From: Bacteroidaceae bacterium
Lineage (GTDB): Bacteria > Bacteroidota > Bacteroidia > Bacteroidales > Paludibacteraceae
Assembly: GCA_963615895.1 (NCBI GenBank)
Contig: CAVEIE010000009.1
Location: 1,455-65,454, forward strand
Reading direction: 5' to 3'
DNA: 64,000 nucleotides
Position 1 is the stretch's first letter, and every line of letters starts with the position of its first letter. Of the stretch, positions 4,357 to 55,900 are shown one piece after another. A program made the translations under genes and the position numbers. Below the pieces are notes generated by a model. It ran no database searches. It had not been told where the DNA came from and saw only the letters and a list, made by a program, of their open reading frames with translations.

Positions 4357-4430
4357 GCGCTCCCTCAAGGACTTGAACCTTGGACCCCCTGATTAACAGT
4401 CAGATGCTCTAACCGACTGAGCTAAGGAAG
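4357..4430 (-). tRNA. tRNA-Asn (anticodon GTT)
   Basis: The reverse complement reads GCTTCCTTAGCTCAGTCGGTTAGAGC...CTGACTGTTAATCAG...GGTTCAAGTCC...AGGGAGCG. The anticodon loop is CTGTTAA. Confidence 0.9.
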
Positions 4431-11683: not shown

Positions 11684-12550
11684 ATGAAAGGAATCATCTT
11701 AGCAGGAGGCAGTGCAACCCGATTGTATCCTCTGTCGAAGGCCATCAGCAAGCAAATTATGCCGGTGTATGACAAGCCTATGATCTATTACCCGTTGTCC
11801 ACACTTATGTTGGCAGGGATACGGGAAGTGCTTATTATTTCAACGCCGAGAGATTTGCCGATGTTTCGTGAGTTGTTGGGCGATGGCAGCCGGTTGGGTA
11901 TGCGTTTGGAGTACAAGGTGCAGGAGGTTCCTAATGGGTTAGCGCAGGCTTTTGTGTTGGGTCGTTCGTTTCTGAACGGCGATAAGGGCTGTTTGATATT
12001 GGGGGATAATCTTTTCTACGGGCAGAGTTTCAGTAAGATGCTGCACCGTGCTGCCTCGTTGGAAAAGGGTGCTTGCATATTTGGTTACTATGTGAAAGAC
12101 CCCCGTGCTTACGGTGTTGTGGAGTTTGACGGGCAGGGGAAGGTGCTTTCGTTGGAGGAGAAACCTGCGGATCCTAAAAGTCATTTCGCAGTGCCGGGTT
12201 TGTATTTTTACGATGAGAGCGTCTGCGACAAGGCGGCTGAGTTGAAGCCATCGGCTCGCGGAGAATATGAGATAACCGACCTAAACAAGGTCTATTTGGA
12301 GGAGGGTAGTTTGCATGTGGAGTTGTTTGGCAGGGGTTTCGCATGGCTGGACACGGGCAATTGCGACAGTTTGCTGGATGCCAGCAACTTCATTGCCACG
12401 ATACAGGGTCGTCAGGGCTTCTATGTCAGTTGCATAGAGGAGATTGCATGGCGGAACGGATGGATCGATACGGACGCTCTGCACCGTTTGGGAGAAGAGT
12501 TGGGTAAAACCCAATACGGACAATATCTGTTAGGTCTTGATAATCATTAG
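11684..12550 (+). CDS. rfbA: Glucose-1-phosphate thymidylyltransferase
   Basis: [18 protein letters not shown]...; 288 aa, with the typical RmlA length and motifs. Confidence 0.9.
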
Positions 12551-12555
12551 GAGTT

Positions 12556-23295: not shown

Positions 23296-23370
23296 GGTCT
23301 CATAGCTCAGTTGGTTAGTAGCACCTGACTCATAATCAGGGGGTCGTAGGTTCAAGCCCTACTGAGACCA
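23296..23370 (+). tRNA. tRNA with anticodon CAT (elongator Met type; Ile2/lysidine not excluded)
   Basis: GGTCTCATAGCTCAGTTGGTTAGTAGC-A-CCTGA-CTCATAA-TCAGG-GGGTC-GTAGG-TTCAAGC-CCTAC-TGAGACCA. Confidence 0.9.
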
Positions 23371-23387
23371 CAAGACATAAATTATTA

Positions 23388-23427
23388 AGAATAAGGTACT
23401 TACGAGTTGGCTCGAGTACCTTATTCT
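23388..23427 (+). terminator. Strong hairpin downstream of the tRNA
   Basis: AGAATAAGGTACT / AGTACCTTATTCT is a 13-bp perfect stem, followed by GCATTTTAT. Confidence 0.6.
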
Positions 23428-23488
23428 GCATTTTATACTATACTTTGACACAATTCTTTGTAAACCCCAATAGATAAAGGGCAAAGAG

Positions 23489-23540
23489 GGTACATTTGGG
23501 GTACATTTGAAAACACACAAAACCGTGCAAAAACCGTGCA
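23489..23540 (+). promoter_or_regulatory. Two pairs of 11-nt tandem direct repeats upstream of int (GGTACATTTG x2; AAAACCGTGCA x2)
   Basis: GGTACATTTG lies at 23489 and 23500, and each copy contains a TACATTTG -7 box. AAAACCGTGCA lies at 23519 and 23530. Confidence 0.5.
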
Positions 23541-23575
23541 ACTTTTTCATACAACTAAATTCAACAGTATATATC

Positions 23576-24766
23576 ATGGCAAAACTATCTGTATTTATTG
23601 ACAAGAGAACACCAAACTCAAAAGGCTTGTTCCCGATTAAGATACGCATAAACAATGGCGCAAGTGCAACAACAGTCAGTTCTAAAATTTATGTGTTAGA
23701 AAAAGCATTTACCGGCAATCCCGAAAAAGTAGTGGAAAAGACTTATCCTAATGCGGTTGTAATAAATACCCGCATTAAGGAACTATATCTCGAATATGCA
23801 GTGGCGATTACTGATTTAGACCATGAGGGGAAACTGCAACGAATTACTGCAGCAGGTATTAAGGACTATGTATTGAAGAGAAAACAAGGCGATGTCCCTG
23901 AAACTACTTTCTCGGCAGAAATAGAACAGTATATTTCAAACTGCCGCTCACCAAAAACGAGAGAGGGGTATGTATATGCTCGCAATATGCTCTATAAGTT
24001 TATGAAAAAGACTACGGTTCATTTTGACGAACTGACTTACCAGGCAATAGTCGATTTTGACCGCTGGATGGAGCGACAAGAACTATCTATAAACACGCGC
24101 GGTATTGTTATGCGTTACATCCGCTCGGTATTCAACTCCGCTATCAAGGCAGATAAAATTTCACCTAATACCTACCCGTTCCGCAAGTTCACAATCAAGA
24201 GAGCGCAAAAAGAAAAGGAGTTCCTTACGCTTGACGAAATACAGAAACTGCGCTCACTCGAACTGAAAGGTATGCGAGCCGTGGCACGGGACTTCTTTAT
24301 GCTATCTTTCTATCTGTGTGGCGTGAACCCGACAGACCTGTTCCATTTCCCGAAAGCAAACAAAAAGGGCAACCTCGTCTTTGTCCGACAGAAGATTGCC
24401 CATACAGAGCCTATGCCTCTGCACCTGCATATTCAGCCGGAGGCGCAGGAGATAATAGACCGCTATGCAGGGAAAGAACATTTGCTGTCTTTTATTGAAC
24501 GATACTATGAATTTGAGAACTTCCGGAGAAAACTAAGCAAACAACTGAGGGATATAGGCAAACTCATAGACCGTCGTCTCTATTTCTATTTGGCACGCTA
24601 CACTTGGGCAACCTTTGCCGACCATGTAGGAGTGTCGCACGATGTCATCAGCAAAGCCCTCGGGCACTCTGACAAAAGCACCGCTGAAAAGTACTATATC
24701 AGTTTCAACTGGGACAGAGCAAATGCCGCCAATCGGCAAGTGATAGATTATTTGGCGTGTAAGTAA
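23576..24766 (+). CDS. int: Tyrosine-type site-specific integrase
   Basis: Start chosen at MAKLSVFIDKRTPNSKG, a Bacteroidetes Arm-binding-type N-terminus. The C-terminal catalytic pattern is ARYTWATFA...ALGHSDKSTAEKYY (R...HxxR...Y type). Confidence 0.85.
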   Translation: MAKLSVFIDKRTPNSKGLFPIKIRINNGASATTVSSKIYVLEKAFTGNPEKVVEKTYPNAVVINTRIKELYLEYAVAITDLDHEGKLQRITAAGIKDYVLKRKQGDVPETTFSAEIEQYISNCRSPKTREGYVYARNMLYKFMKKTTVHFDELTYQAIVDFDRWMERQELSINTRGIVMRYIRSVFNSAIKADKISPNTYPFRKFTIKRAQKEKEFLTLDEIQKLRSLELKGMRAVARDFFMLSFYLCGVNPTDLFHFPKANKKGNLVFVRQKIAHTEPMPLHLHIQPEAQEIIDRYAGKEHLLSFIERYYEFENFRRKLSKQLRDIGKLIDRRLYFYLARYTWATFADHVGVSHDVISKALGHSDKSTAEKYYISFNWDRANAANRQVIDYLACK

Positions 24767-27442: not shown

Positions 27443-27853
27443 TTATTCTCGCAGGTAGGCTTCGACCTCGTGGCGGAACTCGTCTATTGTGCGGCAGACG
27501 ACCACCTTGTTGCCGTAGGCTTCCAGGCGGGGAATAAGTTCTTTCTGATGGTCGGACAGTCTGCCCGCTTTGCCGTTTTTCATTTCGATATAGAGGCTCG
27601 CAAAGCCATTGCGGGGGATAGGTATGCAGAGGTCAGGAATACCATGCACCACACCCTCCGCCACCAACTTGCGGGCGGTCGTCTTGGTCGTGTACGCCCC
27701 GTTCGGAATAGCATAGCACAGCACATCGGGGTGCTGGTAGCGCAGCCAACGCAGGCACTCCACCTGCAGGGCGTGTTCGCTCTGTGCCGCCTTGCCCTTG
27801 TTGGCTTTGTCCCAAAGGGCGTGCAACTCATCTATAGTATATGCGGTCGGCAT
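27443..27853 (-). CDS. VRR-NUC domain nuclease
   Basis: It has a PD-(D/E)xK-type pattern GIPDLCI...LYIEMK and the characteristic LRWLRYQHP...IPNG N-terminal part. Confidence 0.75.
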   Translation of the reverse strand: MPTAYTIDELHALWDKANKGKAAQSEHALQVECLRWLRYQHPDVLCYAIPNGAYTTKTTARKLVAEGVVHGIPDLCIPIPRNGFASLYIEMKNGKAGRLSDHQKELIPRLEAYGNKVVVCRTIDEFRHEVEAYLRE

Positions 27854-29852: not shown

Positions 29853-32800
29853 TTAGCGTATTTTTGTGGATAGTTTAGACTTTCGGCTACTGACCTCTAA
29901 GTAGTCGAAACGGCTGTCTTTGCTCACTTGCCCTGCAAGCACAAAGCGGAAGAAACGACAATCGGTGCGCTCGACCAATGCACCTATGTCTCGGAAGTCC
30001 CCGCTCTTCTCTCTGTGTCCGAGTAACGACCACTTGCGACCGTCGTACGAGCCGAAGATATACAAGCCAAGAATACCCTCGTAGGTAGTATCGGTATCTA
30101 CAATCGTCTCTGTATGTTCAGGAATGGTTTGCAAAATATGCTGAACGATAGGCGGAGTTGTGAGTGACAACATCCTGTATTCATTAGTTATACTGCCTGC
30201 ATACATAGTGGCATAAATTTTCATATCCCATGTGAGTATAAAGTTAGCAGGTTGCTCGGCAGCACTTTCATCTGTCGTGGCAATTATATTCTGCAGCCGT
30301 ATTTCTGTATGATATGTACCCGCTTGAAGTTTTATGTCAATACGCTTTTTTTGTTTATCATACTCGTCGGGGAGTTTATAGCGTATGCGCCAATCGAATA
30401 TGCGTTCACTATCTTCACTATCTTCTTTAAGAGTAACTAAATAGCCTTGCATAGCATACGACCATACAATGTTGCCATTGTTATCACATATACATAAGAT
30501 AGCCTCTCCGTAGTCGGGGTCAATATTAGGTACTCCATCGCTCCACTCAACAGTGGTCGTTCCATCTTTTTTCAGTGCATATAAGTCGAACACTAATCCA
30601 TTTCCGTTGCCATTGAATGTGAGTGATATATTGGCGGATAAGTTTTTAGGAACCGTGAATGATGTTGTGTTGCCATATTCGTCTTGGTTGTAGGTGATGA
30701 GTTGCGGATAGTTGTCTGCATACATATCAATCTTGACGATGGTATCTAAACTATATGCGTATCCTGTTTCTCCATTATCTCCAATCTCAATAGCAGGCAA
30801 GTTATTATTGTCAATGAGATTATTGTTAGTGTAGGAAGTAGTATCTAAGATATTACCTATCATTAGAGTGCAATGGTATGACACATTAAACTCCGCACCG
30901 TAGAATTCGGTTGGTGCTATAGTTGCAATGTTGCCAGATGTGACTATCCGTTGACGGTAGTTGCCTTCGGGTAGTTCAACAGTTCTCTCTTCTCCTAATA
31001 TGTACAGGTGCAAGTTTTGATAGACAGAGAATGTTCTTTTAACGCCATCGAGTTCATCTTGGTATGTGTCTCCATTATCTCGGCTTAAATCATCGGTTAA
31101 GTCTAATGCATAGACTACTTCGTCTTTCTCATTGACAATCTGAAACTGCACTTTCGGTGGTTCAAATGCCTGCGTTTCACCTGTTTCCATTCCAATGGTA
31201 TCAATTAGTGTAGAAGGATAAGTACTCTCACTATCTTGGTTGTAGGTATTTAATGTTGTTTTTGTAGCATTTGTTGTTATCGTTAAAATACCCAAACTGT
31301 TAGCAGGTATTACGATTTCTTCTTTGAGTTCAGTAGTATTCGTATTATCATCGTAATATGCGAACCGTATATCTTTTTTCTCTGATTTGATAGCATAGTA
31401 GTATATATCATCAACTTGCGAGATAAGTTCGGCTGTAAGAGAGCCACCTTGGTCTCCTACAAGTTCTCTTTCACAATCAAACTCGGTTACTTGCGTATTA
31501 TTGCTACTCTTGAGAAAAACCTCGCCCTTAATAGATAGGATAATATGGTATGCTTTGTTGTTCTCTAATTCGGTGGCGATTGAGAATGGATAGAAAGTGA
31601 GTGTAATTGTTTCTTCTGTTACAATGGCATTATCGATAGTTTCATAATCAATGATATTACCATAGTCATCGATTATTTTGTATGATATCATAAGTCTGTT
31701 ACTCTCACTGGTATCGATAGTGCAGTCGGCACATTGAAGTATGATTGTCTGTTCTTCGGAGAAAGAAACTATTAGTTCTTGTTGGAATGGACTTGCTGGA
31801 ATATCTAAGCGATAGATGTCTTGCTCTATATCTCGTATTAAAGTACCCAATACCGACTTCTCATTATACTCAGCGAGTGTACCTTTTGCAGAAGTGAGAG
31901 TAATCTTTTTCTTGCTCTCCGGTATATCAATAGTCTTGTACACTTTCTTACTGACAGTCTGCCAATAGCCACGTGCCACTACTCGGTGCAACTCCTTGAA
32001 GCCGATACTGTCTAACTTGATAATATGCGACATAAGGTAGATACCATTTTCTGCGTCGCTCTGCTTATCTACTTGATACCACTCGTTGCCTGCTACACGA
32101 TATGATGTCGGGTAGTTATTCACATACTCCTCCGCACGAATATCACGGCGAGACCAGTTGCCCTGCTTATCAAGAATGTAGGTATAGTTGTAGTTCGGGT
32201 TGCTGACCATTAACTCGAACTCGTTGTGGTTGTAGTTGATTATACTCCCCTTGAGGTACGAGAGGAAATCGGTCTGCGTCATGCTGTCCTCCGCTGTTAC
32301 GCTCTCGTCTGGCAGACCTGCTATCTGCTTCATATAGTAGGCGTTCTTGGCTATCTTGGAATAGTCTATATGCCCTGCGGTAGTGAAATGCGCCCAATCG
32401 CCCTCCAACGGCTGACCTATCTCCTTCACCTGCTCGCCTGCAATCTCCATAAGTCCTCTGTCGGTGGTGAATACCACACCGCTGTCAATAGGGGTTACCG
32501 ACTTGGCGTTGTTGCATACATCACGGGCAATGACACGGGAGTTGGTATAAGCCATCTCTCCTTTCTCGTCCACGAATAGCGCATACACACCGTCTTTGCA
32601 GAATACATAGAGCGGGGCTGCACCCGTCTGTCCCGTACCCACTGCGACGGAGTTAGACATCAGTGCTACTATCTCCGCAGAACCGACTTGGTAAGTGTTC
32701 TCTACGGGGAAATAGAGCGGGTTGTTCGTGCTGCTCACTTTCAGCCCGTTGGGACAGTTCTCCGTCACTCGCTCCTCTGCGGGGGCGGGGTTGAAATTCG

Positions 32801-35093
32801 GTTTTTGGTCTGTCTGATATTCAGTTACGGATTTTGTTCCTATCTTATCTAACTCTATCGGACAAAGATTTTCGTCCATATAATAGGCTATATTCAAATA
32901 TGGATGATGTTTAAGTTCGAACTCCTTTTTATATAGCGTCATCGTTACTCCATCTGTATTCTCCAAGATACTGATAGTCATTTTTGTGGCACGACCATCA
33001 GGGAAAGATAGTATCGGGTCAAGCGTCTCGATAAAGTCTCTATTCGATACATCTGTATTAAACGGAATAAATCTGCATACCTTTTGTTTACCATCATTAA
33101 CTGTTTCGACCTCTACTAATGTATATGCTGATACATCTTTGGTTTGTTGGACTGCTTCTCTCAATTGGGAACCAGCAGTTCGCATTAGGTAATGAGTAGT
33201 GCGCTTTTCTGATAATGTATCATCATAGAATGATGTAAGTTTGAATAGTGCCTCTTTGAAATATCCGAAATTATTATCACTTATAATTGTATTATCACCA
33301 CAATATTGCAATGAGTGATTATTCAAATGGAATGTATCAAGTGGATAACCATGAAATTGCGAGCGAGTGTAGTTTGCTATATGCAGTCGCCCATTATAGT
33401 TGTATTGTTCTTTGGGGATATAAGAATATCGAATGACTGCCTCTACCTTAAGTGTATCTTGCTGTGTGATATTATTTAACACCCCATCGTATTTGGGGTC
33501 TTGCAAATCTACTATCGGATTGTCTAATAAATCAGGCAACTCATCTTGTGTGTATTCTCGTAACAGATAGAATTGACTATGTAATAAATCGTATTGAATG
33601 TCGTCGTTACCGCGCTGTTGTGGCATATAAGACATATTGGCTACACTGGTGCGAAAATCCTGTGTTGTCTTTATAAGACCATTAGTAACTGTCGCCGAAC
33701 CAGCAACCGTATCTAATGTCCGCCTACAATAGCCTTTTTTCTCAACATCCATTTCATATACCGAAGATTGAGGTGTAATAAAGATACAGAGTGATTGGAA
33801 TATATCTTTGTTGTCATCCATTATCTTAATTAGATTTTTATCAATAGATACACAAAGATTACAACCTCTTATTTGGAATTTCCAAGAAGATGTGTTGATG
33901 TTATAGTAACCAAGATATGCATAAGCAGAACCGCTGGTATAATGTGCTGTCGTATAGATACCATTTCGGAATACTCCGAACACATCTTCGCCACCCGGTC
34001 TTGCATGTTGGAAGTCCGCCATTTTAGAGTCGGTGCTTATTGTTCCTATATCGTCAGTTAAATCGATAGGCGTATCCAAGAGAATACTACCGGGTATATT
34101 ATCTATATAGGTATTTGGCGTACCCCAATATGCCGATATGGTATCATTAGGTACAAGCAATGCGCCATTATTAGAATAGACACCTCGTGATGTTATCTCA
34201 TCAAACCCATCATTTAGTTTGTCAGTTGGGTTTTTATGTGCGCAACGACTTCTCGTGTTATATGTACGCTGACGAGGGAATATCATTGTCGGTGCACTCG
34301 CATACATATACTTACCATCATAGAGTTTTATAGCAGCACACACAAGAAATGGGTCTGTGAAGTAGTTTTTCTCTTTTAGTTTGCCGTATAGCGTAACCAT
34401 TTCATTATGTAATGTTTCAATCCCTCCACCTGATAGTTCTCCAAAATCATTTGCTCGAATACCTACTGCAAGACCTTTGTATGCCAATTTCCAGTCTTTT
34501 TCTCTCCTACCCCATTTGTCCCATCCCTCCTTGTTTGTTTTGTCCTCGGTGATGGTGCCTGCTGCGCCTGCGTCTGCCCAGTTGAAATGTATTTGCCCGA
34601 AAGGATAGACACCTCGGTCGGTCTGCGAGCCGTTCTCGTCCACATAGAGTTTCTTATAGAGCGTGTCTGCAGGCTCGAACAACAGGTACTCGAAACCGCC
34701 TGCGTCGTCGATGATAGTGAGCAAATGCCCCGTCTGACAGATATACAAATCGCCCGATACGCTCGTGAGTTCTGCGGGCGTATCCAACGCTTCGAACACT
34801 CCGTCGGTGTCGATAGTACCAAACCAGTAGAGCCTGCTCTCCCGCACACCGAGGATATGCCGATAGACATTGGTGTGGATATACAACTGCGTATAAGAAA
34901 GTCCGCTCGTGTTGGCGACATCGGATTGGTACTGCATGGAGAATACATGCTTTCCGTCCCCGCTCGCACGCCACGAGCCGTCCTTGAAACGCAGATTGAC
35001 CAAGTCCTCGCAGTCGCCGTCCTGAACGCCTATCTTGGTGGCATTATGCACTATGCCATTCAACTCGATTGCTTTTACATTCTCGCTATCCAT
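29853..35093 (-). CDS. Giant virion structural protein (1,746 aa; tail/receptor-binding candidate)
   Basis: It is uninterrupted and adjacent to the portal-like gene. It contains repeated beta-sandwich-like segments: IIDDYGNIIDYE, IVNEKDEVVYAL and ICDNNGNIVWSY, plus L..G.Y...I motifs. The C-terminus is jelly-roll-like (RFFRFVLAGQV). Confidence 0.5.
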   Translation of the reverse strand: MDSENVKAIELNGIVHNATKIGVQDGDCEDLVNLRFKDGSWRASGDGKHVFSMQYQSDVANTSGLSYTQLYIHTNVYRHILGVRESRLYWFGTIDTDGVFEALDTPAELTSVSGDLYICQTGHLLTIIDDAGGFEYLLFEPADTLYKKLYVDENGSQTDRGVYPFGQIHFNWADAGAAGTITEDKTNKEGWDKWGRREKDWKLAYKGLAVGIRANDFGELSGGGIETLHNEMVTLYGKLKEKNYFTDPFLVCAAIKLYDGKYMYASAPTMIFPRQRTYNTRSRCAHKNPTDKLNDGFDEITSRGVYSNNGALLVPNDTISAYWGTPNTYIDNIPGSILLDTPIDLTDDIGTISTDSKMADFQHARPGGEDVFGVFRNGIYTTAHYTSGSAYAYLGYYNINTSSWKFQIRGCNLCVSIDKNLIKIMDDNKDIFQSLCIFITPQSSVYEMDVEKKGYCRRTLDTVAGSATVTNGLIKTTQDFRTSVANMSYMPQQRGNDDIQYDLLHSQFYLLREYTQDELPDLLDNPIVDLQDPKYDGVLNNITQQDTLKVEAVIRYSYIPKEQYNYNGRLHIANYTRSQFHGYPLDTFHLNNHSLQYCGDNTIISDNNFGYFKEALFKLTSFYDDTLSEKRTTHYLMRTAGSQLREAVQQTKDVSAYTLVEVETVNDGKQKVCRFIPFNTDVSNRDFIETLDPILSFPDGRATKMTISILENTDGVTMTLYKKEFELKHHPYLNIAYYMDENLCPIELDKIGTKSVTEYQTDQKPNFNPAPAEERVTENCPNGLKVSSTNNPLYFPVENTYQVGSAEIVALMSNSVAVGTGQTGAAPLYVFCKDGVYALFVDEKGEMAYTNSRVIARDVCNNAKSVTPIDSGVVFTTDRGLMEIAGEQVKEIGQPLEGDWAHFTTAGHIDYSKIAKNAYYMKQIAGLPDESVTAEDSMTQTDFLSYLKGSIINYNHNEFELMVSNPNYNYTYILDKQGNWSRRDIRAEEYVNNYPTSYRVAGNEWYQVDKQSDAENGIYLMSHIIKLDSIGFKELHRVVARGYWQTVSKKVYKTIDIPESKKKITLTSAKGTLAEYNEKSVLGTLIRDIEQDIYRLDIPASPFQQELIVSFSEEQTIILQCADCTIDTSESNRLMISYKIIDDYGNIIDYETIDNAIVTEETITLTFYPFSIATELENNKAYHIILSIKGEVFLKSSNNTQVTEFDCERELVGDQGGSLTAELISQVDDIYYYAIKSEKKDIRFAYYDDNTNTTELKEEIVIPANSLGILTITTNATKTTLNTYNQDSESTYPSTLIDTIGMETGETQAFEPPKVQFQIVNEKDEVVYALDLTDDLSRDNGDTYQDELDGVKRTFSVYQNLHLYILGEERTVELPEGNYRQRIVTSGNIATIAPTEFYGAEFNVSYHCTLMIGNILDTTSYTNNNLIDNNNLPAIEIGDNGETGYAYSLDTIVKIDMYADNYPQLITYNQDEYGNTTSFTVPKNLSANISLTFNGNGNGLVFDLYALKKDGTTTVEWSDGVPNIDPDYGEAILCICDNNGNIVWSYAMQGYLVTLKEDSEDSERIFDWRIRYKLPDEYDKQKKRIDIKLQAGTYHTEIRLQNIIATTDESAAEQPANFILTWDMKIYATMYAGSITNEYRMLSLTTPPIVQHILQTIPEHTETIVDTDTTYEGILGLYIFGSYDGRKWSLLGHREKSGDFRDIGALVERTDCRFFRFVLAGQVSKDSRFDYLEVSSRKSKLSTKIR

Positions 35094-35105: not shown

Positions 35106-35849
35106 TTAAAAGATACGGGGTATTCTATCTACTACTGCGGGCAACATACGCACGGAGTACTTGCGGATGTCGTTGATTGCGTCTTGGAATTGCGCCTCAT
35201 AGACATTGGCGTCGTCGGGGTAGGCAGAGAGCAACCACTTCCATATAATGAAATATATCAATGCGTCTTGCACCGATTGGTCTAAGGGCTCGATAAAACT
35301 CGGGTTGAGCAACTTGCCCCACTGGATGATATAGTGAATACTCTCTCGGTAGTCCTCCGTGGGTGCAAGATTGGCAAACGTATCGCTGTCGCCTGCACCG
35401 GTAGCCAGATACAGGACACGCTTGTAGAGAATGTAGTCACCCTTTGCGTAGGTCTGCGCAGGTATTGCTCCGTGCGTCAGCGTGATGGTGTGACAATTGA
35501 CATCCCATATATAGGCTTTCTCTATATGGCGGGTGTGCTTGCCGAGTGGGTCGAATACTTTTGCCATTGCCGAGCGGGCGAACGAATGGAACAGGTCGCT
35601 CTCGTCTTTGGTCATAGCGATAAGGTCGAGCAGGTGCGGGGCGTTCTCCGTGCCTCGGTGCTTGCCGAGATACGAGGTGCGCTTGTGTATCTCCTCCTGC
35701 AAGAGTGCAAGCGGATAATACAAGTGCAGGATGTCCATTGTCTCTCCCGAGCAACACCCGAGCATATCACACCACGGAGTGCGATACGGAACGAGTATGT
35801 TAGGCTCTATCTCGGTATATTGTGTTTGACAAGATGTGCGTGCGTACAT
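35106..35849 (-). CDS. Hypothetical structural-module protein (247 aa; start uncertain)
   Basis: It is packed between the endolysin and the giant structural gene. An internal ATG at 35738 (MDILHLYYP) is an alternative start. Confidence 0.45.
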   Translation of the reverse strand: MYARTSCQTQYTEIEPNILVPYRTPWCDMLGCCSGETMDILHLYYPLALLQEEIHKRTSYLGKHRGTENAPHLLDLIAMTKDESDLFHSFARSAMAKVFDPLGKHTRHIEKAYIWDVNCHTITLTHGAIPAQTYAKGDYILYKRVLYLATGAGDSDTFANLAPTEDYRESIHYIIQWGKLLNPSFIEPLDQSVQDALIYFIIWKWLLSAYPDDANVYEAQFQDAINDIRKYSVRMLPAVVDRIPRIF

Positions 35850-35878
35850 AGGCTATTGGTTTTGTGTGTTTATATTTC

Positions 35879-36295
35879 CTATCTCTGTGTCAAGTGTTTG
35901 TATTCAGTGGTGGCGTCGAATGAGGGGCAGGCTTTGTTGGCGTAGTCCCTGTGGCTGTGAATAGTTGCCTGCGGATACTTCTTCACGAGGTGGCGCAAGA
36001 GTTGCTCTAATGCCTTTTTCTGTGCGTCTGTGCGGGTGTCCGTTGCCGCCTTGCCGTCTGCCGACAGACCGCCGATATAACACACGCCTATGCTGTTGCT
36101 GTTGTGACCCACACAATGTGCGCCAACCTCATTCTCCAAACGACCACCCTCTATGCTGCCGTCAAGCGTCACCACATAATGGTAGCCTATCTTCTTGTAA
36201 CCACGCCGTTTGTGCCAACGGTCAATGTCCGAAGCGTGAAAGTCTGCACCCTCTCGGGTAGCACTGCAATGGACGATTATCTCTGTTATGTTCAT
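35879..36295 (-). CDS. N-acetylmuramoyl-L-alanine amidase (Amidase_2/PGRP type) endolysin
   Basis: IVHCSATREG...RGYKKIGYHYVV...GAHCVGHNSNSIGVCYIGG...H..Y..KACPSF. Confidence 0.85.
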   Translation of the reverse strand: MNITEIIVHCSATREGADFHASDIDRWHKRRGYKKIGYHYVVTLDGSIEGGRLENEVGAHCVGHNSNSIGVCYIGGLSADGKAATDTRTDAQKKALEQLLRHLVKKYPQATIHSHRDYANKACPSFDATTEYKHLTQR

Positions 36296-36322
36296 ATCTT
36301 TTCGTTTTAGTTTATAGCATAC

Positions 36323-36358
36323 AAAAAAGCGGCTATCTTCGTATTGAAAATAGTCGCT
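36323..36358 (-). terminator. Rho-independent terminator after the moron
   Basis: The minus-strand stem AGCGACTAT/ATAGCCGCT (9 bp, one G-U pair) is followed by TTTTTTGT. It lies between the 262-aa gene stop and the endolysin start. Confidence 0.6.
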
Positions 36359-36426
36359 TGGGGCAAACCCACCGAATTCGAGGGGGTAGATTATGTCAGT
36401 TCCCTTTCAGTTAGCCAAGAGTGCTA

Positions 36427-37215
36427 TTAAGACACATTTAGTTTGAACATATTCTCTTTCGTACCCCTCTGACTCCACAAGATATATGGGATATTTCGGC
36501 TCTCAAAGGCACTTATATAATCACTATTAATGTCCTTATTTGTGTCGTTAATAATAGCGACACTACTTAATTTCTTGCCAGATATGCGCTCCCGTCCTTC
36601 TTTGATGTCATCAAGGCTGAAGAGAAAATTTGGTACATTCATTTTGTTCAAAACATTGAAAGATTTTATGACTTTTTCCTCTTTCATTCCTGCAAGTTGA
36701 AAATCAAAGGTAAACTCAATTCCCGTTCTTCCCTTGGCTATAAATTCAGGAGTATAGACCAAACCTCTCTCATTAAGCATATTGCGAACATCCTCATTAA
36801 ACATTGTAGATATGGTATTTTTTGCCATAAGTTCCATTTCTGCTATGGCACAAATAGCGCATATCATATTATGTTTCTTTTGCGGAAAGTCTTGTGCAGT
36901 AGCCTTTGTAGTCAGTTCCTTATCATCTAACACAATGCCATAATTGCAAAGGATAGCATTCAGCCATTCTTTCCTTTTGGTAGAATGATTAAAACTGACA
37001 CCTACTTGCTCTAAATTCGTTAGTGTTTCGCCGTCATCAGACATCAATATATTCCCCCGTTCATCTTGTTTGATATAAATATCTATGGGGTCGTTGTAGA
37101 TACCGTAAAACGGAGTGGATATAACACTCCAATTCGTTTTGTCATCGGTATAATAAGATGTCTTATCTTTTAACCAAGTGTAATAAGCCTTTATGCTTTC
37201 ATCTACCCAACTCAT
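36427..37215 (-). CDS. DUF1828/DUF1829-like protein (262 aa)
   Basis: WSVISTPFYGIYNDPIDIYIKQDERGNILMSDDGETLTNLEQVGV...KRKEWLNAIL matches my memory of the DUF1828 signature (TPF...ND.I.IY...LSDDG.TL..LE..G...KR). The gene is low in G+C. Confidence 0.55.
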   Translation of the reverse strand: MSWVDESIKAYYTWLKDKTSYYTDDKTNWSVISTPFYGIYNDPIDIYIKQDERGNILMSDDGETLTNLEQVGVSFNHSTKRKEWLNAILCNYGIVLDDKELTTKATAQDFPQKKHNMICAICAIAEMELMAKNTISTMFNEDVRNMLNERGLVYTPEFIAKGRTGIEFTFDFQLAGMKEEKVIKSFNVLNKMNVPNFLFSLDDIKEGRERISGKKLSSVAIINDTNKDINSDYISAFESRNIPYILWSQRGTKENMFKLNVS

Positions 37216-37739
37216 AGTATGCTCCTTTCTACCTTTATTTCGGTGGTGATATGTATTGCTTTTGCAAATGCTTGTATAGCCTTTTCTATAGACTCGGAAC
37301 TTGCATCAAACAATTTTGTTTCTATGTCAGACGCCTCTATTGGCATTGCCCACTCCATTTGTCGTGTATCACTCGAAACATGAATATGTACATGGCTTTC
37401 TCTTGCTCCAAAATACTTGCCCACATACGGGAGAAAGAACTCTGGCAAATCATCTGGGGCTACCGCAGGATTTCTGTGTCCTCTATTGTAATCCACCCGA
37501 ATTATTCCGATGTTGCTTTCGTATTGTTGACAGTGCAAACTCATACGCAAAGAGTCTTTCTTACCTTGGTCTATTTGCCATGTAAACAACCATTCATCCC
37601 CTTTGTCTTTAACGGCAAGGTCTATTTGAGCAAGCATAGGAAATTTTTGAACGATACGAAAAACCTCTATAGGTTCTCCTTTGTCAATGATTGTCTTGGG
37701 AGTTTGTATGAATTCTATGGCTTGTTCCGTGGTTATCAT
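37212..37739 (-). CDS. Hypothetical 175-aa protein (His-rich core GHRNP...RESHVHIHV)
   Basis: Its stop overlaps the downstream start as ATGA (37212-37215). It is low in G+C and I could not assign a family. Confidence 0.5.
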   Translation of the reverse strand: MITTEQAIEFIQTPKTIIDKGEPIEVFRIVQKFPMLAQIDLAVKDKGDEWLFTWQIDQGKKDSLRMSLHCQQYESNIGIIRVDYNRGHRNPAVAPDDLPEFFLPYVGKYFGARESHVHIHVSSDTRQMEWAMPIEASDIETKLFDASSESIEKAIQAFAKAIHITTEIKVERSIL

Positions 37740-37751
37740 AACTCATTGTTC

Positions 37752-37842
37752 TAATTTTGCGCTGCAAAATTACTCCTTTTTCTCCACATACGCAATATGC
37801 TCTGCGACATAGTACCATTTTGCGGACTTGCGCAAAATGGTA
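37752..37842. promoter_or_regulatory. Two palindromes sharing the core ATTTTGC/GCAAAAT upstream of the moron; one overlaps a -7 box
   Basis: TAATTTTGC-GCT-GCAAAATTA lies at 37752-37772 and contains the minus-strand TAATTTTG box at 37765-37772. TACCATTTTGCG-GACTTG-CGCAAAATGGTA lies at 37813-37842. Confidence 0.5.
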
Positions 37843-37955
37843 TGTATTTCCATTTTGGAAACTGTCGAGTATTTCTCGGTAGTTGCGACTATTTTCAATA
37901 TTTCAAAGAACGCTTGTGCTTACACCAAGTGTAAGGCTTTGAGCCGTCGGAGAGG

Positions 37956-38069
37956 TTACTCTCTGCCGGTGATGATAGACCACAGCCCGATAAAGACGAT
38001 ACCGACAGCAAAGAACGGCAGTGCCAACAACTGCCGCACACAATAGACCGCACGCTTAATCTTGGACAT
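37956..38069 (-). CDS. Very small TM protein (37 aa; holin-size candidate)
   Basis: MSKIKRAVYCVRQLLALPFFAVGIVFIGLWSIITGRE has a single TM segment. It overlaps the upstream gene end by 14 nt. Confidence 0.3.
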   Translation of the reverse strand: MSKIKRAVYCVRQLLALPFFAVGIVFIGLWSIITGRE

Positions 38070-38451
38070 CGCTCTCTTTCTCTTTCCTGTTGCTTTTCTT
38101 GGCTTTCTTGGTTGCCGAGATAGGGCAGTCAATGCGTATGCGCTGCGGACAATTCTCCCGAACACACGAGTAGTCTTTGAGCGTAGCCCGTAGGCTGACC
38201 ATTTCGTTGGTCAAATCGTGCTGACGCTTATAGAGTTCGTCTATCTTGTCGGAGAGCCGTCGGTTTTCCGACTTGACCTCTTGATACAACTCTTTCCATT
38301 GGGCAATCTCATTGCTTTCGCTCTCCTGCTTTTTGATTTCCACCTCTACCTCTTTCATTGCCCGGTTCTGCTTGAAGTAGATGATACTGCCACCCCCTAC
38401 TGCTGCGAGCAGGGAGCATACTGCCGTGACGATGACTTGTAACCATTCCAT
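38056..38451 (-). CDS. N-terminal-TM coiled-coil protein (i-spanin/holin-like lysis accessory)
   Basis: It has the TM segment VIVTAVCSLLAAVGGGSIIYF, a long charged coiled coil, and a basic C-terminal tail containing Cys. Confidence 0.45.
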   Translation of the reverse strand: MEWLQVIVTAVCSLLAAVGGGSIIYFKQNRAMKEVEVEIKKQESESNEIAQWKELYQEVKSENRRLSDKIDELYKRQHDLTNEMVSLRATLKDYSCVRENCPQRIRIDCPISATKKAKKSNRKEKESDVQD

Positions 38452-38457
38452 AACTGA

Positions 38458-38877
38458 CTATCGTTTCAAATATACTCTGATTAAAATTCGTATTGCTGCG
38501 CCTATACCGAGTAAGGCAACTAATATCCAAAAAGCAAGCGACACGCCCTTGTAGTAGGTCGGCACTACCTCCCGTATCTCCACATCGTGTTTCTGCGTGG
38601 CCTGGTAGATAGTGTCGTGCCGCTCCACTATCTTGTCCCGATAGCGGATTGACCACCGCTCACGCCACACCGTGTCGCCTTTTGAGTGGATGTATATGCT
38701 GTCTTTCTCGTAGGTCTGTATCGTGTCGTGCAGGTATCTTGTTACAATACTGTCCCGATACTCCGTCACGGGCAGGCAGGTCGTAGTCTTGCAACCCGCA
38801 AGCAGGCAGCATAGCATAAAACCGATAGCAAAGCCTGCTATCGCCATTAACGCTCTGTATAGTCCACCGTTGTCCAT
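38458..38877 (-). CDS. Unimolecular-spanin-like protein (N-terminal lipobox plus C-terminal TM)
   Basis: It has the lipobox LLAGC after a signal-like segment and a C-terminal TM segment (AFWILVALLGIGAAIRILI), followed by basic residues. This is the same topology as T1 gp11-type u-spanins. Confidence 0.5.
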   Translation of the reverse strand: MDNGGLYRALMAIAGFAIGFMLCCLLAGCKTTTCLPVTEYRDSIVTRYLHDTIQTYEKDSIYIHSKGDTVWRERWSIRYRDKIVERHDTIYQATQKHDVEIREVVPTYYKGVSLAFWILVALLGIGAAIRILIRVYLKR

Positions 38878-49993: not shown

Positions 49994-52900
49994 TCAGTTT
50001 CTCAACTCCTTTCTTTCGTTGTATAGTTTCTTAAAGCGTTTTTCAGCGTTCTTCTCTACTTTCCCAGCGTTCTCATCGCCTCGCAAGAACCATGTCAGCG
50101 GAGCGGTGTGGATTGCCATATAACGCTTGTAATCCTCAACAGCGTGGCGATAGTCTTTCCGGTTGTTTATTACTTCGTCTATCAACATCTGCTCATATTG
50201 CGACTGTGGAATACTGAGCAACGCTTGCGATACTCGCATAAACTGAACGGATGTATCAAGGTCTTGCTCGCTATCAATGGTTGTAGCAACACGGGTGATG
50301 ATGTCTGCTGCAGTCATAGGGTCAAACCCTGCGCCAGACTGCATAAGAACAGATAGTGCTTGTGAGGCAAATTCTGCATACTTGTCGTTCTGTAAGTATT
50401 GCTCTGCTTTCTTTGCGTCTTGCGTGAAAGGTAATTCGGGAGCAAACATATCTACTACATTTGCGTGTCCGTCCAAAGCACTCTCTACAATACCTCCACC
50501 TATTAAGCCATCGAAAGGACTGAAAAGCATGCCGCCTGTTACTGCGTCTTTGGCAAGTTCTTTCTTCTTCTCATTGTCTTTGCCGAATAGGTAGTAGGGT
50601 GCATTACCTACCAATCGCCACAGCAAGTTCAACAGCGCTCCATATACGACAATTCCAATAGTAGCCGAGATGTTTGCCTTACGCCAATCTGTTTCTGCTG
50701 CTTTGCGTGCCTGCTCTTCTGTAAGCCCATCTGCAATATATTGTTTGGCACGAGAGGCTGTCATTTCGTCTTTCTTGCCTCGATTATTCAACAATGTGCG
50801 GACTGCATAGAAGAAGTTGCGGGTATATTGGAAGTTCGATGTACGGAATACAGTTAGGGCAGCCGTAAATAAATTACGGTCTACTTGTACCGGAGCCATA
50901 AATGCACCTTCGGACGACTGCTGAGAGGTGTTGAACGAAACCTCAGCATCCTGTCTTGCCCGATTTGCTGCTTCTTCCTCAGTATATCCTTTGTTGATAT
51001 AATCTGCGTATTTGCTATCATATACTGCTCTTGCTCCAGTAGCACAAGTGAGCACATCAAAGAATACATTGGCAGCCATTCCGTATTTACTACTCAATTC
51101 AAGCAACCGCTTGTTCCATTGCCAATCTGTTGTGCGCTGCATGAGACGCATATCGCCCATATCTCGTTTCCTTATACGCTTGTCGAAATTAGGTAATGTC
51201 GTTCTTGCCCACTGCATTGTTTCATGTGGTTTTATCCAATTGCGCAAGTACGATTTTACAAATACGCCATCCGTCATATAAGTAAAGAATGCGGGAAAAG
51301 AGGCTAACTGTTTGAGTGCAGTGAATGTACGGAAATTGATTTTTGCAGAGGTAACACCCTTGGCCATATTCAGCGTAAATTCAGAAAATGGGTCGGTCTT
51401 GGATTGATAAGTCCCGAGTGCCACCTTGAAAGCGTCTTTCATGTGGTTGTAGAGTTGGTCACCCTTACCGTATATCGTGCCGTTCATACCCTTTATGCGA
51501 TTGCGGAAATCAATGTCCGAGAATAGGATATTTGCGTCTCGTGTTAGTTGCGCAAAGGCAGACCAACGCTCCATTTGAGCAATATGGCGAACGACCTCGG
51601 TAAAGAAGTCGGCATTGCGTACATCCAACGGCAGAGAATTACGAGTACGGCGTTTGATTGCTCCTGTGCTTGTGCCTCTCAGTAGGCGAGAAGCGTCGGT
51701 ATCAGGGCTGCCTAAGTCTTCGTTCTTTTGGCGTGCATTAGGATTAATACGCAATGGGAAGTAATTCTCGATAGCGTCCATTGGTGCTCCAAATAAATCC
51801 TCGTGTATTGGGTTGAAACGATTGCGCAACTGTGAGAAATATTCGGTTTGTATCCAATCGACGACATCAAGTATCTCCTGTCCGAATGCCTTACGGACTT
51901 CTTGGGTGAGTTTTTCGACATCCTCCTCTGTGATGTTCATCGCACTCAGTTTCATTCGCCCGTCTTCCATCTTATTGACGGCATAGATATAGAGAGCATT
52001 GCCCGCATTGAGCGGTATTTCTTCCTCAACAGGATTACCCGCACCATCTACGCCATTCAAAACTTTAATGGAGAACTTATTGTGACTTTTGTCGTTTATC
52101 TTACGCGCTGCTTCTTCCCATGTTTTGTATTTGCCGTGTGTAAGTTCAGACATCTTGTTGTCCAATGTACGGCTTGCTTCGGTAAGCCCTGCTTGCTCTC
52201 GGTCTGCTCCGTCTATCCAGTTACGCATGAAATGGTTGTATAGATACCCCTCTCCATCGGGCGTGTTCCTACCACATAGCCGCAACATTGATTGTAAATC
52301 ACGCATAGGTGACGCAAATGCGTCCCAAATAGAACGGGCTATATCCCGTTTTGTACGGGAACGATGGGGGTTCGTTGCTATACCTTCAAGGTCTTTTGCC
52401 GCATAGTCGCGTATTTTTTCACGATTGGCGTTTTGCTTTGCAATAAACCCTTTTGCCTCCACTGCTTGACCATCTACATATTCTTGTAGGTCTTTTAGTG
52501 ATTGCGCATACGCTTCGGACTGTCCCAAATAATTATCACGCATTGCCTCCTTAATAGAACCGACTAATTGACGGCGTGCTGCTGGTTTGAGAGACATATT
52601 ATTGCGTGCTGCGTCTAACTCGTTTTGTAATTGAATGCGTTCTTGCTTGAGCGGGGCTATGCGTTCGATGTGTTGCTGGGCTATGGTGTAACCAATCCAA
52701 CGACCCTTGAACTGCGTTCTCAGACTTTCGTCAGTAGCACTCATCTCGTTAGACATGGCTTCCCCTATCATATTCTCTAACTGCTCGGTAGTAAGGTTGT
52801 TGTCTAATGCCTCATTAAGTGCCTTGAGTGCGTGTTGCCCCTGCAATGCGACTTTGCCTTGTGCAACAACTCCACTAATGTTAAGTTTTTCGATAGGTGT

Positions 52901-55900
52901 ATTCCGCAACTTGTCCCATTGGCGTTGTGCGGCTTTGACTTGAGCATCTACGATATAGTCAAATATGGTGTTCACCTCTTTGCTTATATCTTCCTTTCCA
53001 ATAGCATAAACTATTTGCGAGGCTACACGGTGCGATGTGTCAGGCATATATCCTGCCCATACGCTATTTGCCTGCATAAGAGTACTATACAGATTGAGTA
53101 ACGAACTAACCACATTGCGGTCGTATTCCGACTGTAATCGCATGGCTTTTTGTATCCCCCTAATATCGCTTCCTACTTTCTTTATAGCACTCTGCATTGT
53201 GTTATAGTCATTCTGCGCATTCTGCACCAATGTTTTCGTTGCTATCTCGCTTTGGGTCATGTGCGGTGTTGCACCAGTTGCGGAAGAAGATATGGAGAAC
53301 TCGGTTTCGTTCTCGTTCTTGGCGGGGTGTCCGAGGTCGGTGGCGTTGATAAGGTCGTAGAGGACACGGTCGGCTGCCTCCTGACGGCTGCCGAAACGGC
53401 GTATATGGAACAGGTTCTCGCCTATCCAGTTCCACAGTTGACGGAGGAGGTTGCGCATACGCTCACGCAAAGAGATAGCACGGGCGAGCGGCTGTTTGCC
53501 CTGCTTCTTGGCTTCGTCGATGTGCTTCTGTGCCTCTTGCTCCATACGCTCTGCGCCCTGCTTGCCGCTGAAACGGGAGATAATCTCGCTCAGTTTGGCG
53601 TGGTCGGAGAGGTGGCTGTAGTTGGGGTCGCGGTCAAGTTCCGCCCACATATCGGGCAGGTTCTCGCGGCTGAACAGGTCTTGCAGGTTGGCATAGAGTT
53701 CGGGGTTGCGCCGGCGCACGGCAGCGACCCACAAGTGGGTGTACTCGTGGATAGGCGTGTTGGGGTTCAAACCCTGCTCGGTGAGGTAGATGTTGCCGTT
53801 TTGAGCGTAGCCGTAGATTGTGCCGGAGGGGGTAAGGAGGAACTCGCGTTGCTGCGGTTCTCGTCCTGCTTTCCGCACCAAGTCATCAACTTCCTCATTG
53901 GTTAGCACCCGGTTCACTTTCATTGCACCGGTTATAATCCATGGGTCGGTTTCGGGATTAGGGTTGGTGCGGTAGCGATAGAAGCCATCAACAGGCAGGT
54001 GTTTCAGTCCTGCATAGGAGTGGCGGTACTTGCCGTTGTCGGTGTACCCCTCTTGTTCTGCTTCTTGCTGGTAGTTGTTATCGGCTGCATACTCCACCTC
54101 TGCCCATACAAAGTCTTTCGGGAATAGTGTGCGATTGCCGTCTGCGTCCTTTCTATTGAATTGCAGGGCATAGGGTATCTCTCCAAGGTGCCAGCCGGGG
54201 CGGTATGCGAGTTGCCCACTGCCTCCTTGCGTTCCTTTGCCTCCTGCTTTTACTTGTGGTCGTCCTGTTTTGCTTTCTCCTGCTATTGGAGCAGCGTCCG
54301 CATTGAGCCACACACCCACTGGGGTGTCTGCCCCGTTAGGATTGGCGACCATTGGCGGGTATAGTTTGCCGTCTTTTCCACGATAGAATACTTTGTAACC
54401 TATGCCTGTTTTTTGAGGAGCAGGGGTTTGGCGGACGGAGAACTGAGGTGTATCTACATTTTTTCCGACAAAAGATTTGGCAGTATCAAAATCATGTACT
54501 ACCTTTGCAGCAGAAATAGCACCTTTGTTATTATCCGTGGGGGCAATGGGAGCCTCAGTGCGAATGTAACGGAGGGCTTTTTCTTTATCTACCGACAACA
54601 GTTTCCCCTTATTAATCCAACCGATAATGCCGTCTTTGTTCTTGTCGTATATAGAACTTACAAGAACAAAGTCGTCTATTTTGGCATTCTTTATATCTAC
54701 GGAAACAATAGCCTCTTTATCATGGATTGTCATCTCTACAAGAACGGCAAATGTATTGTCGTGCGAGCCTTTGAATACGGCTATAGGGTTTTGTAGGTAC
54801 TCGGGCAGGTTGCGTATATCGGTTATGTCAAACCCATGCTCTGTTGCTTTCTTTCGTAATGTTTCGCCATTCAACACTATCCGTTGGTTAGGCATACCTG
54901 CCAATAGCAGCCCCTCGGAGGGCATACCGCAGTTGAACTTGATACGGTCGGCGTTCTCGTCGGTGTATCGGTTGAGCGTGTCGTTGAACTGCTCTGTGAC
55001 TGCCATTAGTTCTACATGGCTCTGTTTTGCGAGAACTCTCTGTGCTTCCTCTTGGCTGACAACCTCAACAGGTATGCCTGCGTCTTTCAGTGCGTCTAAC
55101 ACCGTATCGGTGGCAAGTTGCTGGGCAGCGGTGATGTGGTCGGGGGTGTAGTCCAAGTCGGCGTATTGTGCCTCCGCTGTGTCGTCTTCTGTGTCGTCTT
55201 CACCGTCTAACTTGTCGAGGTCAACGGCTTTGTGCGATTGAGTAGCGTACTTCGCCTCTTTTTCCGCCATCTCTTTTTTCATCTTCTCGGTGTACTCATC
55301 GACTAATGCTTGTGCCTTTTCCAACTCGGCTTGGTGCTCGAAAGGTTTACCCTCACGCGCACGCATTAGGGTGTTGTCCTTTTGCAGACGCTCGATATAG
55401 TCTTTGGAATAGGCTATATCATCTTTCGCCTGTTTGCCCGAAAGGACATCGTTCTCAATGGTCTCGATAAGACGGTCGAGGACTTTGGTTTGTGACGGAA
55501 CAGGTTTATCACCCAATGCAGTCGCACTATACGACAATTCTTTCTCAATAGAGATAACGGTTTTGCCGTCTTTGTAGTTTACCTTGCGGGCAAGTTGTAC
55601 ATAGAAATGGAACGGAATACCATTGAACGATACCGAATAGGCTAAGGACTTCTTGTCTCCCCACCGGTCTTCACGGAGTCTGTCGCTCTCGGCGGCTATT
55701 TCCTTGTTGAGTCCTTTGAGTGCACTCTTGACTTCTTCGGCTGTATGGCAGACCGTGCCGTTGATATTGTACTCACTGACCTTGCCGTTGGGGAAAGTCT
55801 TTTCAAGTAGGTCTATCAGTTTCTCGTTGTCGGCAATCTTTTTGGTACGATAGGCGATAATGAGGTCGTTTTTCTTGGTCTTGTCGGCAATGAGTGTCTG

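Follow-up and report, generated by a model that had tools for sequence, protein, structure and literature searches.

The window analysed here, a 64,000-nucleotide stretch of contig CAVEIE010000009.1 from a Bacteroidaceae bacterium assembly, contains two overlapping minus-strand genes, A and B, that lie between the spanin-like genes and the endolysin of a phage. We found that the two genes form an obligate pair, a member of the candidate defence system that PADLOC catalogues as PDC-M24, and that they occupy a slot whose putative promoter and predicted terminator surround other cargo in related prophages. These observations are best explained by a self-contained promoter-cargo-terminator cassette that was inserted among the lysis genes of a temperate prophage of a Bacteroidota-type host and would be expressed in the lysogen as a nuclease-based defence module. 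For cassette and defence module taken together, we put the probability of this explanation at about 0.6. The pair was already known as PDC-M24; its context as a prophage moron and the cargo-swapping slot are new.

A and B form an obligate pair of the candidate system PDC-M24

Both proteins give full-length matches to the PDC-M24 profiles. Protein A (175 amino acids, aa) aligns with PDC-M24A (PDLC04537, E 4.4e-40) from residues 1 to 175 on profile positions 1–166 of 166, and protein B (262 aa) with PDC-M24B (PDLC04539, E 2.2e-85) from residues 1 to 253 on positions 1–249 of 255. The genes are adjacent and co-oriented, A then B, and we regard membership in PDC-M24 as near certain. The window copy shows no structural difference from the catalogued system; rather, its description here adds the moron context and the shared promoter/terminator slot.

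Searching with the A profile, one genome per species, we found 50 loci, mostly in Bacteroidota and Chlorobiota, with others in Thermodesulfobacteriota, Spirochaetia, Nitrospirales and Saccharibacteria metagenome-assembled genomes (MAGs). B lies directly downstream of A on the same strand in 46 of them, and the four exceptions comprise two contig ends, one fragment of A and one locus in which both genes have decayed. Of 62 loci, drawn from several phyla, 60 keep the 4-nt overlap between A and B. The partnership of A and B is obligate. An earlier interpretation of the window, made from its letters without database searches (the sequence-only reading), had suspected a two-component system and proposed a survey of co-occurrence; the essentially invariant A-then-B order and the recurrent overlap support that idea. 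The same reading had treated the pair as unknown, which stands for the fold of A, for which no relative is known, but not for the pair, already listed as a PDC-M24 candidate. PDC-M24 is a widespread candidate immune system over Bacteroidota, Chlorobiota and other phyla, and the window holds a natural compact version of it, ~1.6 kb including the predicted promoter and terminator, that is suited to direct cloning. In a Nitrospirales MAG (L066, 9917–11155), A and B are both fragmented by frameshifts and have decayed together.

Related prophages carry the cassette at different positions and with different cargo

The elements of the cassette are listed from upstream to downstream; the ATGA overlap and the short inverted repeat were read from the sequence.

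37885–37900, minus strand: perfect 16-nt inverted repeat, arm on the upstream side (minus-strand sequence TATTGAAAATAGTCGC)
37847–37861, minus strand: short inverted repeat TTTCCA-AAA-TGGAAA, upstream of the putative promoter
37813–37842, minus strand: palindrome with 12-bp arms, TACCATTTTGCG-N6-CGCAAAATGGTA, outside the conserved promoter block
37752–37813, minus strand: conserved putative promoter element of the cassette, 62 bp, with ATTG (37796–37793), N20 and TAATTTTG (37772–37765)
37212–37739, minus strand: gene A, 175-aa open reading frame (ORF), DUF6978 = PDC-M24A, mostly beta
37212–37215, minus strand: ATGA overlap of the A stop and the B start
36427–37215, minus strand: gene B, 262-aa ORF, DUF1828 + DUF1829 = PDC-M24B
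36368–36385, minus strand: variable insertion in the 3' untranslated region, a small palindrome rich in G+C
36322–36359, minus strand: predicted intrinsic terminator at the end of the cassette, with a stem of 13 bp (a single mismatch), a loop of 5 nt and a T-run
36342–36357: downstream arm of the 16-nt inverted repeat, equal to the 5' arm and loop of the terminator

The two ORFs with their ATGA overlap, by which translation of A and B is predicted to be coupled, and the spanin-like genes and amidase on either side are as the sequence-only reading had described them. So are the two upstream palindromes and the hairpin with T-run downstream, the latter borne out by folding and by conservation. 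The dip in base composition that it had reported is real, but its figures were overstated: the pair has 37.6% G+C (A 40.2%, B 35.9%) rather than ~30%, and the neighbouring genes have 49–53% rather than 52–58%, in a window of 46.9% overall. Among same-size windows across the prophage part (mean 47.9%, standard deviation 4.2), the pair falls in the lowest 1.7%, a deviant composition of the kind by which morons are recognised.

Comparison with related prophages supports the moron reading more directly than does composition alone. Two relatives from IMG/VR (L001 and L002; g247 76–77% identical) have the same spanin-like genes, including homologues of the upstream lysis-module genes at 37956–38877, and share the 247-aa and ~1650-aa genes with the window, and neither carries A or B. 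In these close relatives the pair is missing from among backbone genes that they share with the window. Other relatives carry it with 82–95% protein and 79–88% nucleotide identity. In L003 and L004 it has the 139-aa-like gene on one side and the Rz-like gene on the other; in L007–L012 it runs opposite to all its neighbours and adjoins a 98-aa gene. At least three positions on the backbone, and both orientations, are represented among the cassettes of related prophages. The block of nucleotide homology runs from ~37813 (37917 in L003 and L004) to 36399 or 36292, that is, from the putative promoter through the terminator. A nucleotide search with the region in a phage collection returned only a weak match to the amidase.

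Upon comparing the cassettes, we observed the same promoter and terminator elements around three different cargoes. Where the window has the pair, L001 (4551–5423) and L075 have a 290-aa protein that matches PADLOC PDC-S42 (6e-36), and L002 (6693–7484) and L080 have a low-G+C 263-aa protein assigned to phrog_9226 and bearing no other annotation. These alignments show a promoter/terminator slot close to the lysis module that is reused and whose cargo can be exchanged. Relatives that lack the pair, shifted positions, inverted orientation and the sharing of flanking signals with other cargo all support the moron reading.

Morons of the classical kind are promoter-gene-terminator units as in lambda and HK97-type phages, and P2 and P4 have comparable cargo hotspots. 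The cassette resembles such morons and prophage defence hotspots in its own predicted promoter and terminator, its deviant composition, its absence from relatives and its exchangeable cargo. It differs in its Bacteroidota-type promoter, in splitting the lysis module, in the reuse of promoter and terminator, and in a 16-nt inverted repeat. The phage group to which these cargo-swapping prophages belong is poorly studied, and the slot offers a route to further lysogenic-conversion or defence genes in prophages of gut Bacteroidota.

A putative promoter and a predicted terminator travel with the cargo

Upstream of A, a 62-bp block is almost invariant in all 8 of the 8 aligned related phage loci, two of which have different cargo. 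The full element also occurs in three metagenome contigs, out of nine that a pattern scan matched; the corresponding scan of IMG/VR matched only the two contigs already known. ATTG-N20-TAATTTTG within this block is what we take to be a promoter of the Bacteroidota -33/-7 type (TTTG/TAnnTTTG), and its -7 box TAATTTTG sits within the palindrome with 9-bp arms at 37752–37772. A scanner for consensus sigma-70 promoters, which is ill suited to this type, did not report it. The block occurs once in the 64 kb of the window, which rules out a general phage promoter. The opposite orientation of the cassette in L007–L012 implies independent transcription, and we infer that the pair has a putative promoter of its own that travels with different cargo.

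The terminator hairpin at the other end folds with a free energy of -14 kcal/mol (z -5.2), and none of 200 shuffled sequences folds as well. It is common to the 3' ends of all cassettes compared, whatever the cargo, and its stem has undergone compensatory changes, to AGCGACTA/TAGTCGCT in L007 and to AGCAACTA/TAGTTGCT in L001. On this computational evidence the cassette has its own terminator downstream, although a generic scanner for consensus terminators did not report it.

Both palindromes near the putative promoter (37752–37772 and 37813–37842) are far above chance (0.01–0.03 expected), and the half-site pattern ATTTTGC...GCAAAAT common to the two is found nowhere else in the window (0.01 expected). 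As RNA, the 12-bp-arm palindrome would fold with -16.8 kcal/mol (z -5.6); no T-run follows it. Besides the window, only L003 (~9405–9435) has it; L005, L006, L001 and L002 do not. Its stems are TTTTGCG/CGCAAAA in the window and TTTTCG/CGAAAA in L003, so that structure rather than sequence has been kept. Further upstream, the short inverted repeat at 37847–37861 may be a regulator site; the pattern ATTTCC-N4/5-GGAAAT is maintained in L001, L002 and L003.

The small CCCCCTCGAATTCGGTGGG-like palindrome at 36368–36385 is found in the window and, in a variant form, in L005 (~4395–4430), and is absent from L003 and L006 at this place. In L001 and L002 such a palindrome stands just upstream of the cassettes; it may be a small mobile hairpin element. 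A scan of 35800–38300 against Rfam found no known RNA family.

A 16-nt inverted repeat brackets the whole cassette in the window, its downstream arm being part of the terminator. The same arrangement is present in L001 (4434–4455/5462–5483), L002 (6584–6598/7542–7556) and L003 (9303–9319/10861–10877), with two compensated substitutions and despite the different cargo; it was not seen in the inverted cassettes of L007–L012. The duplex between the arms is predicted to be more stable than the terminator hairpin (-20.8 versus -13.9 kcal/mol). It is possible that the terminator is bypassed by late transcripts, in which the upstream arm is included, and not by cassette transcripts. Alternatively, the repeat could serve as a site of recombination or inversion, or represent a degenerate copy of the terminator, inverted and left by insertion. 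The outer flanks are not direct repeats, and transposon-like terminal inverted repeats with target duplications are unsupported.

B is predicted to have a nuclease-like C-terminal half, and A a conserved histidine-rich core

Pfam assigns B to DUF1828 and DUF1829 (E 2.9e-26 and 7.9e-21), confirming the assignment made from the sequence. The AlphaFold2 (AF2) model of B has a mean predicted local distance difference test score (pLDDT) of 90.1 and a predicted template modelling score (pTM) of 0.61, the latter fitting two domains joined by a long helix. With its C-terminal half, Foldseek retrieved PD-(D/E)xK nucleases (E 5e-4 to 2e-2, probability 0.9–1.0), and the matches include the R2 restriction-like endonuclease domain, AF1548, VC1899, Can2, Bax1, Cdn1 and R.BspD6I. 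The DUF1829 half displays the alpha-beta-beta-beta-alpha-beta core of this superfamily (model pLDDT 90). In the model, the C-terminal half of B is of PD-(D/E)xK nuclease-like fold, and B is a putative nuclease. Homologues share D171, Q173 and E180 without exception and K184 in 97% of cases, and all four are intact in the window copy. A single-sequence scan of IMG/VR with B found no relatives.

The N-terminal DUF1828 domain contains an invariant acidic cluster of its own (N41-D42, S59-D60-D61) and has no recognised relative. Its predicted secondary structure, a helix, a four-strand meander and helices, is not Rossmann-like, and Pfam finds only DUF1828 at the N-terminus, with no CARF or other known sensor domain. 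Together with root-mean-square deviations of 8–19 Å in the long Foldseek alignments, this led us to reject a CARF-like sensor in B. B resembles Can2/Card1, VC1899 and other PD-(D/E)xK nucleases at the level of the fold of its C-terminal half, and shares with Can2/Card1 the two-domain layout with a C-terminal nuclease. By contrast, it has no sequence-level relation to these nucleases, no detected CARF domain and non-canonical motif spacing, and no cyclase or signal-synthase gene lies near the pair.

The sequence-only reading had considered the DUF1828/1829 family to be without assigned function. For DUF1828 this stands, since the searchable literature yielded nothing on the function of DUF6978 or DUF1828; DUF1829 has since been linked to the validated two-gene defence system HipAD/DS-6, whose DS-6B protein carries DUF3037 and DUF1829 (PMC13092281). 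HipAD/DS-6 likewise consists of two genes and places DUF1829 in the non-enzymatic or partner protein; it differs in its HipA-like kinase partner, in an N-terminal DUF3037 rather than DUF1828, and in lacking a DUF6978 protein.

Protein A belongs to Pfam DUF6978 (2.6e-15). Its family is small, accounting for 194 clusters (at 50% identity) out of 1.84 billion representatives, and the members are almost all stand-alone proteins of ~165–190 aa. NCBIfam holds no family for A or B, and sequence searches of both against PDB chains returned nothing meaningful. The AF2 model of A (pLDDT 93.5, pTM 0.90) is very confident and mostly beta. Foldseek found no significant match for it; the lowest E was 0.6 in the PDB and 0.13 in BFVD. 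H69, R81, D83, Y84, N85, N90, H116 and H118 are invariant in 65 homologues, and H88 and H120 are conserved in 98% and 91%. Histidines of the His-rich core that had been pointed out from the sequence are invariant in homologues, and the residues flagged there are clearly under selection. Both A and B conserve putative active-site residues.

H116-V-H-I-H-V and the RQMxW that follows resemble the C-terminus of HINT1 and its histidine-triad (HIT) motif, and the three histidines of the HxHxHxx motif (H116, H118 and H120) are kept in 100%, 100% and 91% of the 65 homologues. The alignment by hhalign of A with HINT1 covers 19 columns only (62% probability), and in distant Firmicutes homologues the third histidine is not retained and the motif is weaker. 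No HIT relation appeared among the top 50 listed Foldseek matches, in the PDB profile search or in Pfam on the 65 members. Because fold, Pfam and PDB-profile searches give no such relation, we do not file A as a HIT protein; its likeness to HIT nucleotide hydrolases is the HVHIHV...RQMxW motif resemblance, a weak lead, and it differs in showing neither the HIT fold nor family-level homology in these searches.

Most bacterial copies lie among defence genes, and two distant phage pairs in lysogeny modules

Among 44 bacterial loci, ~32 have type I hsd genes on the same strand and within three ORFs of the pair. As a rule the pair stands between hsdS and hsdR, in either order, and it often abuts or overlaps the next gene. 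Other neighbours are further HsdS genes, YhcG/DUF1016, RhuM, PDDEXK_3, Fic/SoFic, AAA_15/AAA_21/RloB, McrBC, a Type ISP enzyme and AbiEii/DUF6088. Almost everywhere the pair is AT-richer than its flanks, by 6.7 points on average. Nesting within defence operons, such as restriction-modification (R-M) operons, is itself used to predict defence genes (10.1101/2024.01.29.577857). A defence function, which the sequence-only reading had guessed at, finds support by association, in the PDC-M24 matches, the type I R-M operons and the defence islands.

Genes on the lysogeny side of temperate phages point in the same direction. DUF1828/1829 homologues of 25–33% identity occur in temperate Firmicutes phages and satellites, and distant versions of the pair in Staphylococcus, Streptococcus and Lactobacillus prophages. 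In Staphylococcus phage 37 (L081, 2503–3759) and Lactobacillus prophage Lj965 (L082, 2571–3786), a distant A-like gene and a DUF1828/1829 gene lie in the lysogeny module between repressor and integrase, the usual place of lysogen-expressed exclusion genes. The A-like gene that precedes each is of ~151 aa; hhalign relates it to A with 87% and 74% probability, and it keeps the R-x-D-x-N-G-G-x-H-K-N-P and/or the H-x-H motif. Lj965 also has a superinfection-exclusion gene, two genes downstream of the DUF1828/1829 gene. The phages with these pairs are cultured temperate phages of Firmicutes, and the pairs are possibly convenient experimental models.

Proposed working of the pair and alternative explanations

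We propose that in the lysogen the cassette would be transcribed from its own conserved promoter and end at its own terminator, and that A and B would be made together through the ATGA coupling. B would be the effector, with a PD-(D/E)xK-type nuclease domain (DUF1829) behind a sensing or regulating N-terminal DUF1828 domain. A would be a compact His-rich controller of B, acting by antitoxin-like inhibition or by sensing infection. The DUF1828 domain, A, or both would keep B latent until another phage infects; the nuclease would then be released and would cut nucleic acid, so that the infection is blocked or aborted. Expression during lysogeny, like the nuclease activity of B, the role of A and the defence phenotype, is a prediction. 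A defence role has, in our judgement, roughly two chances in three, and this particular division of labour between A and B is less likely than the defence role itself.

Several observations weigh against this proposal. PADLOC PDC entries are unverified candidates, some of which gave no protection when tested (PMC12409345), and the searchable literature yielded no experimental test of PDC-M24; a few PDC candidates do protect (10.1101/2024.09.26.614923). For A, neither a fold nor any family other than DUF6978 can be recognised, so that its role is a guess. In B, the motif D171...E180-x3-K184 has a non-canonical spacing relative to (D/E)xK, and a helix glutamate present in 86% of homologues is alanine in the window copy. 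Promoter activity and lysogenic expression are both judged from sequence conservation. NCBIfam names the 290-aa cargo 'LAPAL motif putative phage structural protein' (5.7e-59), so that not all cargo at the slot is clearly defensive. Finally, the tight embedding in type I R-M loci could mean that the pair normally works with R-M and not alone.

This embedding raises the question of whether the pair guards type I restriction against phage anti-restriction factors. As an explanation in its own right, the pair would be an accessory of type I R-M that monitors or backs up restriction and fires when an anti-restriction factor disables it, the prophage copy making use of the R-M system of the host. 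The hsd operons that hold ~32 of the 44 bacterial copies speak for this, with the pair on the same strand, typically as hsdM-hsdS-[A-B]-hsdR, at tiny or negative intergenic distances, as do other R-M-linked genes at the same loci (RloB/AAA_15, YhcG/DUF1016 and RhuM). PrrC of the EcoprrI locus, a single ABC-ATPase/anticodon-nuclease protein, occupies the same hsdS-hsdR position. With PrrC and the Rlo ORFs the pair shares this niche and a latent nuclease-type effector, putative in B, but it has no sequence or domain relation to them and also occurs without linked R-M. Indeed, no type I genes adjoin the prophage copies (the window and L003–L012), the Firmicutes phage copies or L018, which lies by a Type ISP enzyme, so the pair is kept intact without linked R-M. 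Unrelated defence genes, moreover, are reported to be commonly embedded in R-M operons, and such embedding is a general predictor of defence genes (10.1101/2024.01.29.577857). We consider the accessory explanation unlikely, though one to be taken seriously. A toxin-antitoxin (TA) addiction module, in which B is the toxin and A the upstream antitoxin and which stabilises its carrier element with no direct anti-phage role, would account for several features: the TA-like organisation of a small upstream gene coupled through ATGA to a larger nuclease-like gene, the mobility and AT-richness of the pair on integrative elements, and the decayed copy in L066, in which both genes are broken together. 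Yet the neighbourhoods are overwhelmingly defence genes and not generic mobile-element backbones, and an antitoxin would seldom be of the size of A or so rigidly conserved; A has an invariant His/Asp cluster, and no DNA-binding domain was detected in it. Many TA modules are themselves defence systems, and this explanation therefore overlaps with a defence role; as an alternative to it we hold it improbable.

The position of the pair in the window, co-oriented with lysis and structural genes and between the spanin-like genes and the endolysin, would also suit a part in the lytic cycle, as a DNA-processing nuclease or lysis regulator belonging to the late operon. Only 27 nt separate the end of the terminator from the start codon of the amidase, so that transcription of the late genes has to run through the terminator. 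Against this stand the absence of the pair from close relatives with the same backbone genes, its opposite orientation to the backbone in L007–L012, its varying position among relatives, its own conserved (predicted) promoter and terminator, and the location of most homologues in bacterial chromosomes inside R-M operons rather than in phages. On these comparative data a lytic-cycle function appears unlikely, and we leave it a very slight chance. A more elaborate alternative joins two proposals. PDC-M24 would be a new two-protein immune switch, in which A is an enzyme of unseen fold whose invariant His/Asp cluster, with the histidine-triad-like HVHIHV motif, makes or destroys a small nucleotide-type ligand or modifies B, B is a ligand- or partner-gated PD-(D/E)xK nuclease, and DUF1828 is a new sensor domain; at the same time the 16-nt repeat would be functional, either as a long-range anti-terminator for late-operon read-through into the endolysin or as a recombination site by which the cassette is moved or flipped. 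That both proposals hold jointly strikes us as quite doubtful.

Lysis neighbourhood and prophage context

The cassette, the proposed carrier of a lysogen-expressed defence module, has the following surroundings.

38458–38877, minus strand: 139-aa protein with lipobox and C-terminal transmembrane (TM) segment, upstream lysis-type gene
38056–38451, minus strand: 131-aa Rz-like protein with N-terminal TM/coiled-coil, weak matches to Rz-like spanins
37956–38165, minus strand: 69-aa TM protein, upstream lysis-type gene
35879–36295, minus strand: Amidase_2 endolysin, downstream backbone neighbour (Pfam 1.3e-16; phrog_822 6.5e-59)
23507–24766, plus strand: tyrosine-integrase homologue, 72% identical to the Phage_integrase gene of L011
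23296–23371, plus strand: tRNA-Met, at the probable left end of the prophage

The tRNA-Met and integrase genes (23296–24766) are likely to mark the left end (attL) of an integrated prophage. Portal, terminase, tail-fibre-like and capsid genes follow the integrase, and the related phages lie in contigs of 180–285 kb; 'lysogen' is therefore a fair description. Bases 1–23.3 kb, which hold five further tRNA genes, are probably host chromosome.

In the lysis neighbourhood, the 139-aa protein is laid out like a unimolecular spanin: a lipoprotein signal (LLAGC) stands at its N-terminus and a TM segment at its C-terminus. It matches no Pfam or PHROG family. The endolysin has undergone non-orthologous replacement: the window has Amidase_2 (35879–36295), and all relatives examined have Peptidase_M15_3 followed by VRR-NUC (endolysins at 3769–4230 in L001, 5924–6385 in L002 and 12465–12884 in L003). 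The VRR-NUC homologue of the window lies elsewhere, at 27449–27853 next to the portal gene, and the backbone has therefore been rearranged. L009 has a second cargo site in this neighbourhood (11839–12868), where a gene with a SocA_Panacea domain and a 139-aa gene lie between VRR-NUC and the M15 endolysin.

The only stretches lower in G+C than the pair lie in a 1746-aa gene (29853–35093), at ~30.4–30.7 kb and 32.7–34.4 kb, with 33–39%. Residues 1108–1585 of its product have no counterpart in L001 and L002, and the gene may encode a mosaic protein of the tail or of receptor binding. Further along, a single minus-strand ORF of 4633 aa (49994–63895) extends almost to the end of the window.

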